Source of the DNA: a virus
Taxonomy: Duplodnaviria; Heunggongvirae; Uroviricota; Caudoviricetes
Virus record (IMG/VR): IMGVR_UViG_2671180921_000030
Location: 1 to 45,744 of that record
Length of the DNA stretch: 45,744 nucleotides
Reading direction: 5' to 3' (one strand)
Shown here: positions 501 to 44,678 of the stretch, in pieces
Numbering within the stretch: the first letter of the stretch is position 1
Layout of the letters: each line of letters begins with the position of its first letter
Translations under genes and position numbers: made by a program
Notes under the pieces: model-generated
Told to the model about the DNA's origin: nothing
Databases searched by the model: none
Seen by the model: only the letters and a program-made list of their open reading frames with translations

Positions 501-603
501 GCAAGGCAACTAAGCCTGCATTAATGCCAACTTTTAGCGCATGGCTCTCTCCCAAGAGCCATTTCCCTGGACCGAATACAGGAATCGTATTCGGTCTCTT
601 TTT
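501..603 (+). ncRNA. sdsR: SdsR (RyeB) small RNA
   Basis: gcaaggcaactaagcctgcattaatgcc...ccgaatacaggaatcgtattcggtctcttttt matches my recollection of SdsR, including the terminal hairpin and U tail; lies between yebY and the prophage. Confidence 0.7.
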
Positions 604-604
604 A
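578..604. repeat. attL core (left copy of a 27-bp direct repeat)
   Basis: ACAGGAATCGTATTCGGTCTCTTTTTA here and ACAGGAATCGTGTTCGGTCTCTTTTTA at 44652..44678 (26/27 identical); integrase gene is adjacent. Confidence 0.6.
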
Positions 605-636
605 ATTGTATTTAAAATCAATTAGTTGCAAGCATC

Positions 637-656
637 TCCCCGAAATTCCCCGAAAT
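637..656. promoter_or_regulatory. Tandem TCCCCGAAAT repeats, candidate integrase arm-type sites
   Basis: Two tandem copies between attL core and int; related TCCCGAAATT near attR (44506..44515). Confidence 0.3.
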
Positions 657-734
657 TTACTCGAATTTCTGTATTCCGGTCTTTTTTGGTTATATCACAA
701 CCAATATACATTTAACAATCCATTTACGTTAAAA

Positions 735-1811
735 TCAGAGCAGTAAGTACGTTTTTTCTCGCTCATCAAGATACATTTTTGTTGTCTTCTCCGATGTGTG
801 ACCAAGTAGGCGCTGGGCAAATTCTTCTCCACATGTTTCTTTGTACAATCGTCCAGCCAGACTTCTGATCTCGTGAAAAGTTGGTGGGTTTTCACTGAAC
901 TGAATACCTGTTAATTTTCTGGCTGCGACAAATTTTTTTGTCAGGCCATCCGGGTGAATGCTGCCGTCAGGGCTGTTTTTTCTAATCCCGGCACTGATTA
1001 GATAATCTCCCCGGCTTACCAGGCGGCACCGTTCAACTACTGTACCAAGCCGTAGACCAGCGACAGGAAGGCTGAGTGACAGGGGGATAGCAATCATCAT
1101 TCCTGTCTTAATTTGCCTGATGTGGAGACGATCATCATAAATATCACTGAACCGCATATTCGTTATGTCTTCGCGACGTTGTCCTGTTACAAGGGCTAAA
1201 TCCATAGCTAATGGGAACCATGCCGGAAGTTGATCTGCTGCCTCCCTGATGCAGTTGTATGTCTTTAGTTTCAGTCGTTCTCTTGTAACTACTATTTTCG
1301 GTGCTCTTGTTGGCGTTACTGGATTTTGAGATATACGTCCTTCAACAATGGCCTCGCGAAACATATCAGACAACACAGAACGCATTGATCCTGCCATTGT
1401 GTTTTTCCCTCCTTCAATCCACAAATCAAGAAACTCGGCAATATGGCGAGTGGTTATTTCTGTCAGTAAAATCCCTCCCAATTTTTCTTTTATTGTCTCC
1501 AGTTGATTTACCCGAATTTTATAAGTATTTCTGGACACTTTTCTCCTTATAAGAATCGTTTTGTAACGTTCAATCCAGTCTGCCATAGTAAATGAGTCGA
1601 ACCCTTTAAGCTTTTCAATTAAGGCAGCAGGAGAGTAGTTTTTGTATATATAATGATTTGCTTCAATTGCCTGCGCTACTGCATCTCTTCTTGAAATTTT
1701 ACCTAGTGTAAATTCTTCTTTCGTCAGAGGGTTGCGCCAGTAATATGCTTTGTCCCTCCTTCGATATGTTAAGTTTTTAGGCAAATTGGGATCGTATTTT
1801 TTCCGCTGCAT
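735..1811 (-). CDS. int: Tyrosine integrase (lambda Int family)
   Basis: 358-aa ORF; C-terminal catalytic region with R..HxxR..Y context ([15 protein letters not shown]); adjacent to attL and xis. Confidence 0.9.
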
Positions 1812-2064
1812 GTTTTAACTTCTCCAGTAACGGACTGTCTCTCCCTTGTCGCCCATTAGGCTGATGGTGTGTTATATCGGTATCAACCTTATTTGGGTTG
1901 ATATAGAAAGCCTCCGGAACCACTCTGTAACTCCTCCCGTGTAGTTCAGGTGCAGGATAAATGTTTCCATTCCTTGCCCATCGTCTCAGCGTTGATATTG
2001 ATGGTGGGTTATCCGGATATCTGAGTTTTCCCCACGTTTTGAGTGTCACAAGATTCATTGCCAT
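1777..2064 (-). CDS. xis: Excisionase
   Basis: 95-aa ORF directly upstream of and overlapping int; small basic protein typical of Xis/AlpA-like excisionases. Confidence 0.65.
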   Translation of the reverse strand: MAMNLVTLKTWGKLRYPDNPPSISTLRRWARNGNIYPAPELHGRSYRVVPEAFYINPNKVDTDITHHQPNGRQGRDSPLLEKLKHAAEKIRSQFA

Positions 2065-2164
2065 ACCTCTTACGATATGACCGCCAGTAAATATACAGAA
2101 TACTGGCGGGTGTGGTTGATTTTTAATAATCAGCTATGAAGTTCTAATTTGTATATAATGCAAC

Positions 2165-2353
2165 TCACGAGGACAGAAGTTTCTCGCAATTAAAATTTAT
2201 CAGCTTTACTTTCTGCTCTCTGGACACGCCTGCTTCTTTTTTCCCTGAGAGCATTTTTTCGCATTCTGATTTCGTTAATTTAGATTTTGAATATCTTGTC
2301 CAGTTAGTAGGAGTGCCACCTTCCTTTTCAATAGTGGCAGTAATTTTATACAT
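2165..2353 (-). CDS. YdaC-like small phage protein
   Basis: Start trimmed to the ATG preceded by GGAGGTG; overlaps ralR stop; position as in Rac prophage. Confidence 0.45.
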   Translation of the reverse strand: MYKITATIEKEGGTPTNWTRYSKSKLTKSECEKMLSGKKEAGVSREQKVKLINFNCEKLLSS

Positions 2354-2540
2354 GAACACCTCCATTATTATTTCCAGTAGTTCGTTTATTCCATCTTTCG
2401 AGTGCTTCTTTTTCACTTCCACTATAGCCGGTTCGGGATTCGCATCCGTTACACTTTGCGCGGTAATATCCTGAAATGGCTTTCACCGTAACAGATGGAC
2501 AACCACAAAACGGACATGGTTTAACATCGTCATATCTCAT
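2346..2540 (-). CDS. ralR: Restriction alleviation protein Lar/RalR
   Basis: 64-aa product MRYDDVKPCPFCGC...GGVHV with Cys-rich motif; matches recollection of Rac RalR; start chosen by homology, no strong SD. Confidence 0.65.
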   Translation of the reverse strand: MRYDDVKPCPFCGCPSVTVKAISGYYRAKCNGCESRTGYSGSEKEALERWNKRTTGNNNGGVHV

Positions 2541-2596
2541 AATTTTTGTCATAAAAACTGTCTCACGTTGGCGGTGCATTACACCGCCTGGCTGAA

Positions 2597-42932: not shown

Positions 42933-43326
42933 CATGCTCAGGGTCGGTTGTCACATCAACCGACTTAACCTCGTTCTTATATGCCAGCGACGCCGACAGT
43001 TTCGCTCTGTTGGCGTCGCTGATTTCACCCAGCATCAGTTCTGTTCGCCAGTCCAGCATAGTGGCATCCGCGTGGGCCAGCAGTTGCTGGCGAACTTGCT
43101 CAGCAGCAGCAATCGGCTCCTCACGCGTCGGCGGTGGAATATCAATCCAGACAGGCATATTTTGGCTGGAACTTAGCTGTTTGCCTTCAGGTGGTGCAAA
43201 GTTATATTCATTTCTGACGCTATCGGAAACCTCTATAACATCAGATGGTAATGAACCATTGGTAAGGTATTCTTCTTTCATCTCGATGGGATAAAAACCC
43301 AGGGTGCTTGGCGAAAATAAATACAT
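42904..43326 (-). CDS. Tail fibre assembly protein (Tfa-like), inverted cassette
   Basis: 140-aa minus-strand ORF with Tfa-like C-terminus; directly downstream of the minus-strand fibre C-terminal cassette. Confidence 0.6.
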   Translation of the reverse strand: MYLFSPSTLGFYPIEMKEEYLTNGSLPSDVIEVSDSVRNEYNFAPPEGKQLSSSQNMPVWIDIPPPTREEPIAAAEQVRQQLLAHADATMLDWRTELMLGEISDANRAKLSASLAYKNEVKSVDVTTDPEHVNWPVPPEV

Positions 43327-43328
43327 GG

Positions 43329-43667
43329 TTATTTCCCTATGGCAATAAAGTATGAAGAATTCATTCCACCAATATTGTATTTAGCAAAAAATCGGGTCAG
43401 GTCATTGACGTCACGTTGTATTGATGGAAATTGTTGTGATTGAGAGGCAGGCGTTGACATTAAAACGCCTGGCACAATAGCAATAACGCTACTCGGAAAT
43501 GGTATCGGGAAATTGATATATAGCCCGTTAGAATCAAAAGATGCCTCGAAAGCCTGAATAACATATCCACTCGGCAACTTAAACCACCCGCCACCAGACT
43601 GAAAACTACTCATATCAGGGATTAGGTTATGTCCCGTTCCTACATCCCGTTTCGCCGCCTCTCCCAA
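43329..43667 (-). CDS. Alternative tail fibre C-terminal cassette lacking its own N-terminus
   Basis: Minus-strand frame opens right after an in-frame TGA inside the candidate crossover site; no promoter or SD; followed by Tfa-like gene. Confidence 0.5.
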   Translation of the reverse strand: MGEAAKRDVGTGHNLIPDMSSFQSGGGWFKLPSGYVIQAFEASFDSNGLYINFPIPFPSSVIAIVPGVLMSTPASQSQQFPSIQRDVNDLTRFFAKYNIGGMNSSYFIAIGK

Positions 43668-43684
43668 ACCAACCTTTCAAATAT
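43659..43684. promoter_or_regulatory. Candidate Hin/Gin/Pin-type crossover site
   Basis: CTCTCCCAAACC-AA-CCTTTCAAATAT, about 16/26 matches to the hixL-like consensus as I recall it; the cassette reading frame opens within it; about 60 nt upstream of the invertase. Confidence 0.35.
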
Positions 43685-43743
43685 TTTTCTGAATCAGGTG
43701 ATATTTCGCCTCTTCTCCTGTTTTTACAACAGGAGAAGCACTC

Positions 43744-44307
43744 ATGATTTACGGGTATGTTCGTGTATCAACAAATCATCAGGATACAGAGTTGCAACGT
43801 CTTGCACTTGAGTCAGCTGGCTGTGAGCGAATTTATGAAGAATATGCCAGTGGCAGAACAGCTAATCGCCCTGTGTTAAAGGAATTAATTACGGTGATGA
43901 AAAGTGGAGATGAGTTGATTGTCTGGAAGTTAGATCGGATAGGGAGAAATGTGCTGCATGCGCTATTGATGTTTCAAAATCTGCACGAAAAAGGTATTAA
44001 TTTTCGGAGTATTACAGATGGCGTAGACCTGAAAACAGCTAGTGGTCGCTATAATTTCCGTAATATTCTTTCTGCTGCGCAGTATGAATCTGATTTGAAT
44101 AGCGAGCGAACTTTAGCTGGTTTGGCTATTGCCAGATCCAAAGGCCGGATTGGTGGGCGTAGACCGAAGTTTAGCGACGAGCAGTGGCAACAGATGGGAG
44201 CGCTCATAGCGGCAGGGAAATCACGGCGTTATGTTGCACGTATCTATAACGTTGGGCTATCAACCCTATATAAACGATTTCCTGTTACTGGCATTCAAAC
44301 GAAATAA
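43744..44307 (+). CDS. pin: Serine recombinase, DNA invertase (Pin/Gin/Hin family)
   Basis: N-terminal catalytic motif YVRVSTNHQDTELQR, resolvase core VWKLDRIGRN, C-terminal HTH. Confidence 0.85.
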   Translation: MIYGYVRVSTNHQDTELQRLALESAGCERIYEEYASGRTANRPVLKELITVMKSGDELIVWKLDRIGRNVLHALLMFQNLHEKGINFRSITDGVDLKTASGRYNFRNILSAAQYESDLNSERTLAGLAIARSKGRIGGRRPKFSDEQWQQMGALIAAGKSRRYVARIYNVGLSTLYKRFPVTGIQTK

Positions 44308-44505
44308 TTTAAAAGCAATTTAAAGAGTTATTTGTCTAATGTTGGAAGCCGCAGCCACGTCGTATGCAAGAACGTGCTGCGGCTGGCTGATGGACGTTCG
44401 ATAGCGCGAGTTTGAATGAAAATCAGCCGGAGGTGATTTTACATAATTGTTGCGGAATCATTCAATATAGGGATTGCTTATTTCTGCCTGGATTGGTCTG
44501 AAATA

Positions 44506-44515
44506 GTCCCGAAAT
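44506..44515. promoter_or_regulatory. TCCCGAAATT, candidate arm-type site near attR
   Basis: Same motif as the tandem repeats at 637..656. Confidence 0.25.
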
Positions 44516-44651
44516 TTTCTCTAAAAAACTCGAAAAAAATGGTAACTAATTGAATGCATTAATATGCAATGGTACGTGTTTGGGATTAAAAGATGAGCGT
44601 AATTTTGCTTAACAAATTAATTTAAAAAGGGTTTCTTGTTTGTTGACGAAA

Positions 44652-44678
44652 ACAGGAATCGTGTTCGGTCTCTTTTTA
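44652..44678. repeat. attR core (right copy of the 27-bp direct repeat)
   Basis: ACAGGAATCGTGTTCGGTCTCTTTTTA, 26/27 identical to 578..604. Confidence 0.6.

Follow-up and report, generated by a model that had tools for sequence, protein, structure and literature searches.

The window analysed here, a stretch of DNA of 45,744 nt, carries a prophage in the 3′ end of the sRNA gene sdsR. We hold with high confidence that a myovirus was integrated there by its Int, and that this event would have rebuilt sdsR, cut ryeA and uncoupled pphA. The preliminary description had already proposed a prophage at this position, and it is borne out by the phage gene set of the interval and by a contiguous attP in the phage record PP818812.1. 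The interval encodes integrase, excisionase, RecE/RecT, replication proteins, Q, lysis genes and terminase, together with structural genes (portal, capsid, sheath, tape measure, baseplate and tail fibre) and an invertase. Around the presumed invertible tail-fibre segment, no convincing long inverted repeats of 14 nt or more were found. In its late region the element shares 97% identity with the E. coli myophage records of vB_EcoM-611R5 and its relatives, and judged from its sequence it is a complete-looking temperate lambdoid myovirus prophage. Coordinates are collected in Table 1.

Table 1. Features of the window, in order of position (core, the 27-bp sequence shared by attP and attB).
Feature	Position	Strand	Remarks
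yebY	1..342	+	Host gene upstream of sdsR; ORF, annotated yebY in RefSeq genomes
RyeA body, nt 65-272	370..577	-	About 208 nt, without own promoter; ends at the bidirectional yebY terminator
sdsR (ryeB), intact	500..603	+	K-12 coordinates transferred by alignment; Rfam RF00111 at 504-603
attL core	578..604	.	27 bp; same as RyeA nt 38-64 and as the SdsR terminator's 3′ half
Candidate 7-bp overlap AGGAATC	580..586	.	Terminator hairpin loop, flanked by inverted stem arms as putative core-type sites
Prophage body	605..44651	.	Phage genome length 44,074 bp
IHF-consensus-like AATCAATTAGTTG	616..628	+	Between core and first P′ arm site
P′ arm-type sites (putative), three in tandem	639..666	+	CCCGAAA 639-645, CCCGAAA 649-655, CTCGAAT 660-666
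Promoter-like TTGTTA-N15-TGATATAAC	689..718	-	About 18 nt between -35 and TATAAC hexamer; downstream of the int stop
Integrase, lambda-family tyrosine	735..1811	-	Pfam Arm-DNA-bind_1, Phage_int_M, Phage_integrase; phrog_7244
Excisionase	1777..2064	-	phrog_629 and Pfam Exc
P arm-type sites (putative)	44508..44535	+	CCCGAAA 44508-14, degenerate CTCTAAA 44519-25, CTCGAAA 44529-35
attR core	44652..44678	.	27 bp; identical to K-12 attB
RyeA nt 1-37	44679..44715	-	Orphaned with promoter; reads into attR core and phage P arm
Candidate fossil integrase 3′ end and P′ arm	44685..44785	-	Host spacer; contains the RyeA promoter
RyeA promoter	44723..44754	-	-35 CTGGAC 44749-54; extended -10 TGTTATGGT 44723-31; 100% identical to K-12
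pphA	44812..45468	+	NinI-like phosphatase; phrog_246, E 2.4e-88; Pfam Metallophos

The two ends of the prophage carry a 27-bp direct repeat with 26/27 identical positions and a start-to-start spacing of 44,074 bp, and a wider comparison (573-609 against 44647-44683) matches at 89% across 37 nt. Both copies, which the preliminary description had reported, lie at breaks in homology to uninterrupted genomes. Homology of window positions 1-700 to other E. coli genomes stops at 604 in 28/30 of the matches listed, which are spread evenly along the ranking. Alignment to the uninterrupted yebY-sdsR-pphA locus of K-12, the check suggested at the outset, reaches 604-608 on the left, picks up again at 44647 on the right, and places attB and the core at the junction; from 44652 onward the right flank is 100% identical to K-12. 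The empty site is present in 5191 of 5426 complete E. coli genomes, whilst 228 contain this integrase at 95% nucleotide identity or more. Moreover, the attP of PP818812.1 (45.9-46.4 kb) aligns end to end with the left side of attR joined to the right side of attL.

The core shared by attP and attB reads ACAGGAATCGT(A/G)TTCGGTCTCTTTTTA. We rejected decay of the right copy as the source of the attL/attR mismatch, given that attR equals K-12 attB and attL equals attP at that position. On the aligned sequences the mismatch is instead an attP/attB polymorphism that maps the crossover: across several phage lineages core position 12 is always A in attL copies and always G in E. coli attR copies, and in the attP of PP818812.1 both polymorphic positions are A. 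Differences between attB and attP at 577 and 589 confine the crossover to 578-588, and from these bounds we infer a 7-bp overlap region corresponding to the loop of the SdsR terminator.

Integration has left sdsR whole. The gene matches Rfam RF00111 over model positions 1-100 with 114.7 bits (gathering score 38), and its terminator was found both by a terminator scan and by folding. The left copy folds into a perfect terminator hairpin of 11 bp at -15.8 kcal/mol, which equals the K-12 value, in agreement with the earlier suggestion that this repeat completes an intact sdsR. At least the last 15 nt of the gene (589-603) are phage-derived, including a G to A change at 589; sdsR is thus rebuilt at full length on integration because attP carries the 3′ half of the terminator. 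The right copy had been described as having a weakened stem, and in fact it has no hairpin at all, because the 5′ arm there is phage sequence; its folding energy of only -4.9 kcal/mol does not surpass that of shuffled sequence.

The antisense gene is not so preserved. The NC_000913.3 annotation gives ryeA a length of 272 nt and a start that lies 38 nt past the 3′ end of sdsR and precedes the pphA ATG by 97 nt. Published mapping by primer extension, RACE and in vitro transcription is in agreement, with the start of the 272-nt RNA put 141 nt into sdsR coordinates (PMC6610125). In the window the start falls at 44715 on the minus strand, 37 nt past the core on the pphA side. The gene spans the core and is therefore cut by the insertion. 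As read from these coordinates, RyeA is split, its promoter and first 37 nt lying about 44 kb from the remaining 208 nt or so, and the window holds no contiguous 272-nt RyeA unit with the mapped sigma-70 promoter. Antisense transcription from the pphA side, with a promoter somewhere in 44680..44800 and some 44 kb from the body, is just what had been anticipated. The -35 and extended -10 hexamers in Table 1 are our own proposed assignment, made from their position relative to the mapped start. A consensus scan of 43700-44900, of a kind that also misses the known RyeA promoter, did not find a terminator for the transcript of the orphaned promoter, and folding of the minus strand from 44715 to 44300 gave a mild z-score of -2.07 with no obvious terminator.

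A RyeA lying entirely on one side of the insertion would contradict this split, and superficially the Rfam model RF00101 (SraC_RyeA, 145 nt) finds one: it matches 607-463 end to end with 178.4 bits, wholly on the left. If the real RyeA/SraC were this species of about 145 nt, it would be unaffected by the prophage, and an SraC species of about 150 nt has been described (PMC3333887). That species is, however, reported in the same source to be an RNase III processing product of a longer RNA. The match lies wholly on the left because the model lacks the 5′ part of RyeA, and the mapped start gives the RefSeq-annotated 272-nt RNA (PMC6610125), which puts the promoter to the right of the junction. 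We therefore regard an unaffected RyeA as extremely improbable. Part of the database RyeA is nonetheless intact on the left, and a phage-initiated transcript could substitute for the missing start.

The integrase has both the catalytic and the lambda-type N-terminal arm-binding domain (PF00589 61.7 bits, PF22022 40 bits, PF09003 28.1 bits; all above cut-offs), shares 41% identity with HK022 Int along its full length, and its stop codon lies 130 bp from the core. A search of genome contigs with the single integrase protein returned just two near-identical loci and no distant relatives; the latter were obtained from a viral-contig scan for the core sequence and tblastn of phage records. The arms compared are from phages whose integrases are 45-100% identical. 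Within the 45.7 kb there are three exact copies of CCCGAAATT, all in the att arms (639, 649 and 44508), against about 0.35 expected by chance. Almost all of 56 distinct P′ arms have the P′ sites some +34/+44/+55 from the core (+/- 2 nt), and in a few arms a copy is degenerate or missing. In most of 47 distinct P arms, sites lie at about -144 and/or -123, with a middle copy near -134 in some and no copies in a few. The same offsets are seen in Salmonella phage ZC-S1_prp and in Flyfo siphovirus Tbat2_3 (integrase identities of 74% and 50%). This comparison across related phages lends support to the earlier proposal that the CCCGAAAT-type repeats are integrase arm sites, which we consider plausible. 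By eye, ATCAA-N4-TT[AG] stands at a similar place to the IHF-like match in some related arms (L007, L021) and not in others, and we treat the site as putative.

In the mechanism that we favour, the lambda-family Int, with its N-terminal arm-binding domain, would recombine phage attP with host attB, exchanging strands within the first 11 bp of the core, most likely at the 7-nt terminator loop, where the two stem arms would act as inverted core-type sites. Conserved tandem putative arm sites lie in both arms, and the IHF-like site adjoins the core. Integration would restore sdsR, send the sigma-70 ryeA promoter with nt 1-37 to attR and nt 65-272 to attL, and uncouple pphA from the sdsR promoter. 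Any lysogen RNA antisense to SdsR would then have to begin inside the phage, by int read-through or from a phage promoter. The explanation is built on the observed junctions, attP, empty site, integrase domains, RyeA coordinates and arm-site conservation, to which the expression effects, the overlap and the IHF site are added by inference.

The arrangement resembles that of lambda and HK022 in the three Int domains (arm-binding, central and catalytic) and the presence of Xis, and in the predicted tandem P′ arm sites, P arm sites, IHF-like site by the core and 7-bp spacer between inverted core sites. It differs in that the target is an sRNA terminator hairpin rather than the gal-bio attB, and in that the binding sites here are predicted; the arm-type sequence itself presumably differs from that of lambda. 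Phages integrate into the 3′ ends of tRNA and tmRNA genes (e.g. Williams 2002). As in those cases, the crossover here would lie in a 7-nt loop with a symmetric stem, and the phage carries the 3′ end of the gene, which is thereby restored. Unlike them, the target is an Hfq-type sRNA and an overlapping antisense gene is not restored. The phage record PP818812.1 ('Actinobacillus phage vB_Apl-pPE4'), has an integrase 98.3% identical, near-identical attP arms and core, and a Rac-like early region at 93%, whereas its late region is another one and its genome is 47.5 kb. The host label of this record is at odds with an attP that matches enterobacterial sdsR.

Might the element be a defective remnant fixed at the site, its att repeats inert scars? 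Complete E. coli genomes yielded no identical full-length prophage, the best place covering 76% for the left half and 87% for the right, and mosaicism with Rac-like early genes is evident, both of which would suit a remnant. However, the essential modules are all present as long uninterrupted ORFs, the att arms, int and xis are intact, an attP and int 98% identical occur in a phage genome record, and, as noted, the late genes closely match those of named E. coli myophages; we consider a remnant unlikely. A more serious alternative is that RyeA has been functionally replaced, with the P′ arm or the int transcript supplying a promoter, such that a chimeric RyeA (phage-derived 5′ end, native 3′ 208-235 nt) is still made and pairs with the whole of SdsR. 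The integrase gene is transcribed toward sdsR, with no terminator-like site between its stop (735) and the core. The promoter-like element at 718-689 faces sdsR through attL in the antisense direction, and related arms conserve it as TGTG[A/G]TATAAC. It is a candidate source of such an RNA, and in one group of relatives (group B) native-type RyeA -35 and -10 sequences lie inside the int 3′ end. Against this, the promoter-like match is weak, a scan gave fewer promoter-like sites here than in shuffled sequence, and the conservation could instead reflect a protein-binding site. The same simple scan misses the known RyeA promoter, which makes promoter predictions weak in both directions, and its negatives were left unused. 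On balance, replacement of RyeA falls just short of an even chance in our judgement.

Turning to the host side, pphA now lies about 44 kb from the sdsR promoter; in K-12 it is normally driven by read-through from that promoter, according to the account in PMC6610125. The spacer between core and pphA may hold a decayed int 3′ end and P′ arm of an older sdsR-targeting phage. The mapped RyeA -35 and -10 would fall on former Leu-Asp and Tyr-Val-Met-Val codons, and the E. coli RyeA promoter and 5′ end would be a phage relic, RyeA having been born from, and repeatedly remodelled by, integrations at this site. We find this a serious possibility, marginally more doubtful than not, and the decayed-integrase spacer may be a new side result. 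Each new phage of the clade would bring in an outward-reading 5′ module of its own. In K-12, the interval between pphA and rsmF was searched for a second, relic copy of the core; the score of 10 is the mean of the shuffles, so that a far end of the putative ancient element is not detectable. The neighbouring gene, pphA, encodes a NinI-like phage phosphatase. We also considered the group-B TGTTATGGT motif as a conserved non-coding phage promoter and rejected it; the motif lies within the integrase coding sequence, and its conservation is thus explained by coding constraint. If true, the phage origin of the spacer would account for sraC promoters that differ from species to species beside a conserved sdsR, and a cis-antisense 'antitoxin' sRNA would have arisen by recruiting a promoter from the end of a dead integrase gene.

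The insertion site and its effect on RyeA have been known since 2008 from Salmonella phage PhiW104 (Balbontin et al. 2008, J Bacteriol 190:4075; summaries in PMC7380047, PMC3333887 and PMC3603311). These summaries identify the attachment site with the final ~23 bp of ryeB (sdsR), internal to ryeA, and state that lysogenisation alters the 5′ part of ryeA and that the ryeA/ryeB site is used repeatedly by foreign DNA, which accords with the hotspot named in the preliminary description. The present case shares the site and the ryeA effect as summarised there, and differs in its E. coli host, its phage mosaic and its 27-bp shared core.

SdsR and RyeA are described by Choi et al. as a toxin-antitoxin pair with reciprocal degradation in which SdsR is toxic without RyeA, and transcription of RyeA interferes with sdsR in K-12. 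Among complete E. coli genomes, about 4% have this integrase at this site, and O111 (including O111:H8 and O111:H11), O103 and O55:H7 strains are among the carriers of a phage there. The locus is of value for annotation and offers a textbook-style case of a phage that uses an sRNA terminator hairpin as its attB, with a known antisense side effect. The K-12 model of RyeA, of SdsR timing and of pphA expression should not be assumed in carrier strains.

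The prophage is bracketed by a 37-nt direct repeat (573-609 and 44647-44683; 89% identity, 44,074 bp apart in a repeat search of the window), whose inner 27 nt (578-604 and 44652-44678) differ only at A589 versus G44663, just as the preliminary description had it (26/27 identical). Alignment to uninterrupted loci confirmed that these repeats flank the prophage, since homology breaks at them. Against the MG1655 yebY-pphA locus the left alignment reaches approximately 604-608 and the right restarts at 44647, with 100% identity from 44652 into pphA. Against other E. coli, the match to window positions 1-700 stops at 604 in 28 of the 30 matches listed, an even sample down the ranking of 5,426 matching genomes. 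A K-12 probe of 301 bp, with the site at its middle, was unbroken in 5,191/5,426 complete genomes of E. coli; the other 235 had it split. The integrase and P' arm (the phage side of attL) were present at no less than 95% nucleotide identity in 228 complete E. coli genomes, O111:H8 and O111:H11 strains among them, and wider prophage searches also gave matches in O103 and O55:H7 strains. With 228 carriers against 235 split genomes, E. coli occupancy of the site is nearly all by this integrase type.

K-12 attB reads CGAATACAGGAATCGTGTTCGGTCTCTTTTTATCTG; relative to it, the two variable positions are T...A in attL and A...G in attR. The predicted attP, made of the left part of attR and the right part of attL, is contiguous in the phage record PP818812.1, where the match spans both arms over a few hundred bases in total and the integrase is 98.3% identical to that of the window. 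Junctions, attP and integrase together support integration in the 3' end of sdsR, as had been proposed. We then compared 125 core-containing sites from viral contigs and reference loci, among the matches listed. Core position 12 is A in every attL-type copy and G both in K-12 attB and in every attR with an E. coli right flank, several unrelated P arms (the phage side of attR) included. Therefore, the mismatch is an attP/attB polymorphism, which limits strand exchange to ACAGGAATCGT (578-588). The sdsR terminator has the form GACCGAATAC-AGGAATC-GTATTCGGTC, and we infer that its 7-nt loop would be the overlap region, with the stems as inverted core-type sites. The same loop and stem logic is known from integration at tRNA anticodon loops. 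PP818812.1 is labelled 'Actinobacillus phage vB_Apl-pPE4', and its integrase, attP and early region are 93-98% identical to the window prophage; the host label looks doubtful, given that the attP fits enterobacterial sdsR.

SdsR is full-length at 504-603 on the plus strand (Rfam, 114.7 bits; gathering score 38). The left core copy, as predicted, completes an intact sdsR: it provides the 3' half of the terminator hairpin, which pairs perfectly over 11 bp at the K-12 value of -15.8 kcal/mol. The right copy had been credited with a weakened stem; the stem is indeed poorer, but this understates the change, as the partner arm is absent and the fold (-4.9 kcal/mol) is no better than shuffles, leaving no terminator. 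The sdsR sequence also has T at window position 542 where K-12 has C, by which the internal stem GGCTCT/AGAGCC gains two pairs; this is a host polymorphism unrelated to the phage.

In NC_000913.3, ryeA occupies 1923066-1923337 (272 nt), sdsR lies on the opposite strand at 1923104-1923207 and the pphA start codon is at 1922969, so RyeA starts 38 nt past the 3' end of SdsR, at a point 97 nt upstream of pphA. Using primer extension, RACE and in vitro transcription, Choi et al. (PMC6610125) located the RyeA ends and reported a 272-nt RNA with a sigma-70 promoter. On coordinates transferred from MG1655 by alignment, RyeA is split by the prophage: its start and promoter stay on the pphA side, within the approximate interval 44680..44800 suggested beforehand, and nucleotides 65-272 lie beyond the left core.

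Coordinates of RyeA segments, predicted integrase arm-type sites and candidate promoter elements in the window
Feature	Position	Strand	Remark
RyeA -35, CTGGAC	44749-44754	minus	
RyeA extended -10, TGTTATGGT	44723-44731	minus	
RyeA transcription start	44715	minus	
RyeA nt 1-37	44715-44679	minus	
RyeA nt 38-64	44678-44652 and 604-578	minus	duplicated core
RyeA nt 65-272	577-370	minus	
Candidate phage promoter, TTGTTA-N15-TGATATAAC	718-689	minus	~18 nt from -35 to TATAAC hexamer
IHF-consensus-like AATCAATTAGTTG	616-628		
P' arm-type site CCCGAAA	639-645		predicted
P' arm-type site CCCGAAA	649-655		predicted
P' arm-type site CTCGAAT	660-666		predicted
P arm-type site CCCGAAA	44508-14		predicted
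P arm-type site CTCTAAA	44519-25		predicted, degenerate
P arm-type site CTCGAAA	44529-35		predicted

Since the promoter region is identical to that of K-12, the orphaned RyeA promoter should still fire. Its transcript would cross the attR core into the P arm and, as no terminator-like site was found by a consensus scan of 43700-44900 or by folding 44715-44300, would run on antisense toward the invertase gene. The 145-nt Rfam model SraC_RyeA has a full-length match at 607-463 on the minus strand; it falls wholly on the left because the model starts at the SdsR 3' end, without the first ~35 nt of RyeA. A species of ~150 nt, which fits this model, is described in PMC3333887 as an RNase III product.

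In K-12, according to PMC6610125, ryeA transcription interferes with that of sdsR, RyeA and SdsR degrade one another, and pphA is transcribed mainly via read-through from the sdsR promoter. With the convergent ryeA promoter 44 kb off, its interference with sdsR should be lost in the lysogen. Moreover, pphA would be severed from the sdsR promoter, sdsR read-through would now run antisense into int, and RNA antisense to SdsR would arise from int transcripts or a phage promoter only. The extended -10 of the candidate phage promoter is kept in related arms. A Salmonella prophage review, citing Balbontin et al. (2008), reports that PhiW104 lysogeny changed the 5' part of ryeA, with less ryeA and more ryeB (sdsR), exactly the class of effect expected here.

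The integrase (358 aa) has the lambda arm-DNA-binding, central and catalytic domains, all above Pfam cut-offs, is adjoined by an excisionase gene and is 41% identical to HK022 Int. Scanning viral contigs for the core gave at least 119 loci. At every locus whose core is preceded by an sdsR-type left flank, a homologous integrase (45-100% identity) comes within ~60-140 bp after the core in the same orientation; these enzymes define a clade that targets sdsR. Of the 56 distinct P' arms among the matches listed, almost all carry three tandem NNCGAAA(T/A) units, placed to within 2 nt at ~+34, +44 and +55 from the core; the spacer between units is not conserved, and a copy is degenerate or missing in a few arms. 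Most of the 47 distinct P arms listed have units at ~-144 and/or -123, some with a middle unit near -134, and a few lack units. Salmonella phage ZC-S1_prp (Int 74% identical) shares this arrangement, and so does Flyfo siphovirus Tbat2_3, a circular metagenomic phage (Int 50% identical) with a core that matches a variant sdsR terminator. In the whole window, exact CCCGAAATT occurs three times, always at predicted arm-type sites. The earlier suggestion that repeats near both ends are candidate integrase arm sites is thus well supported by cross-phage comparison. Within 665-699, the P' arm also holds GAATTTCTGTATTCCGGTCTTTTTT, similar to the sdsR terminator region (inverted repeat 574-585/665-676; direct repeat 592-602/677-687) and adjoined by conserved GGTTATATCACA; this region may serve as a further core-like Int site or as a promoter, or may be a relic.

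Judged by its gene content, the prophage looks complete. Its genes comprise int, xis, RalR with the RalA sRNA, RecT, RecE and a repressor-like regulator, as well as a replication initiator, DnaC-like loader, Q, isrK/C4-antirepressor module and endolysin. There are also genes for small and large terminase, portal, protease, major capsid, sheath, tape measure and baseplate, a tail fibre that has alternative C-terminal cassettes, and a DNA invertase. The early half is Rac-like (92-94% identity to Rac and vB_EcoS phage records), and in the late half identity is 97% to E. coli phage records of the vB_EcoM-611R5 group and ~80% to Salmonella phage SEN34. The same full mosaic was not found among the complete E. 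coli genomes searched, where the best place covered 76% for the left half and 87% for the right half.

Adjoining xis, 2169-2579 holds a RalR-like ORF (best PHROG match, Lar-like restriction alleviation protein; homologue named ralR in a neighbouring RefSeq genome) and a full-length RalA antitoxin sRNA (Rfam 222.8 bits). RalR/RalA is a type I toxin-antitoxin pair known from Rac. Matches to isrK, c4-a1b1 and C4 antisense RNA at 17381-18217, directly 3' of the Q gene and 5' of an anti-repressor gene, identify a probable P1/P7-type C4-ant immunity module, similar to the Gifsy-1 isrK-anrP region. Between the replication and Q regions, a cargo island (12167-15339, minus strand) encodes a C5 cytosine methyltransferase (354 aa), a 609-aa AAA/OLD-like ATPase and a 90-aa ORF for which no match was found. 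The best PADLOC matches of the ATPase were HEC-04, ATPase-Toprim_I-B and AriA, with no confident system call; the island is possibly a defence or moron module. At 41560-44307, a tail-fibre gene and a tail-fibre assembly gene are followed on the opposite strand by an alternative assembly gene, a fibre C-terminal cassette and, at the very right end, a Hin/Pin-type invertase. This arrangement suggests that a host-range segment can invert, although a search for inverted repeats of 14 nt or more beside it found none.

A side result, which may be new, concerns the host spacer from core to pphA, which holds the RyeA -35, -10 and start. Its minus strand (44685-44785) aligns with the last ~22 codons of int and the first part of the P' arm in group B, a sister lineage of phages that target sdsR, which includes E. 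coli prophages (e.g. site L053) and has integrases ~50% identical to that of the window. Identity extends to 72/108 columns, and the local score of 29 compares with maxima of 18 in 1,284 control windows from the same sequence and 15-23 in shuffles. By blastn (E 2e-6 to 8e-4, 1.06-Mb database) every match fell at an int 3' end. No comparable resemblance to the spacer was seen for the arm of the window prophage (z = 0.4). The group B integrase C-terminus reads ...HKNLTMTKKYLDARGAEYVMV*; the RyeA -35 corresponds to Leu-Asp codons and the extended -10 to Tyr-Val-Met-Val codons of group B int. Orientation and order are of the attL relic type, and the spacer resembles a fossil attL left by an earlier insertion; the RyeA promoter is possibly of phage origin. 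No far end of the relic was found in a core-copy search from pphA to rsmF in K-12.

The gene next to the spacer, pphA (44812-45468), codes for a full-length phage phosphatase of NinI-like type (phrog_246, E 2.4e-88) and faces the way nin genes do with respect to int, though PHROG families may include mis-bounded prophage flanks and yebY too has a PHROG match. The neighbouring yebW-like ORF (45469-45744) matches phrog_1092. These genes fit the idea that remnants of an ancient lambdoid prophage lie right of the att site. In other hosts, attR right flanks resemble integrase 3' ends, from fossil-level to intact. In the attR right flanks L008-L123, from viral contigs of other hosts, the core often borders on a further integrase 3' end and P' arm, with alignment scores of ~100-200 for a tandem element or attP and 23-41 for a fossil, which points to repeated, stacked insertions.

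Citing papers credit Balbontin et al. (2008) with describing, in Salmonella, the site, how present-day phages use it and its repeated use in evolution, bearing out the earlier mention of this sRNA locus as an insertion hotspot. Moreover, ryeB is among the sRNA genes known as phage targets (Bobay et al.), 'RyeB' serves as an integration-site label in prophage catalogues, and a Cronobacter prophage at SraC/RyeA is on record. The main finding is correct and already known: the prophage adds a further mosaic to a common class, and its mechanism is ordinary and well understood. Its value lies mainly in the clean attP architecture across an integrase clade and in the possible phage origin of the RyeA promoter. 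The putative spacer fossil agrees with the published repeated entry of foreign DNA at the site. If true, a phage origin of the promoter would explain why sraC promoters vary between species, as stated in PMC3333887.
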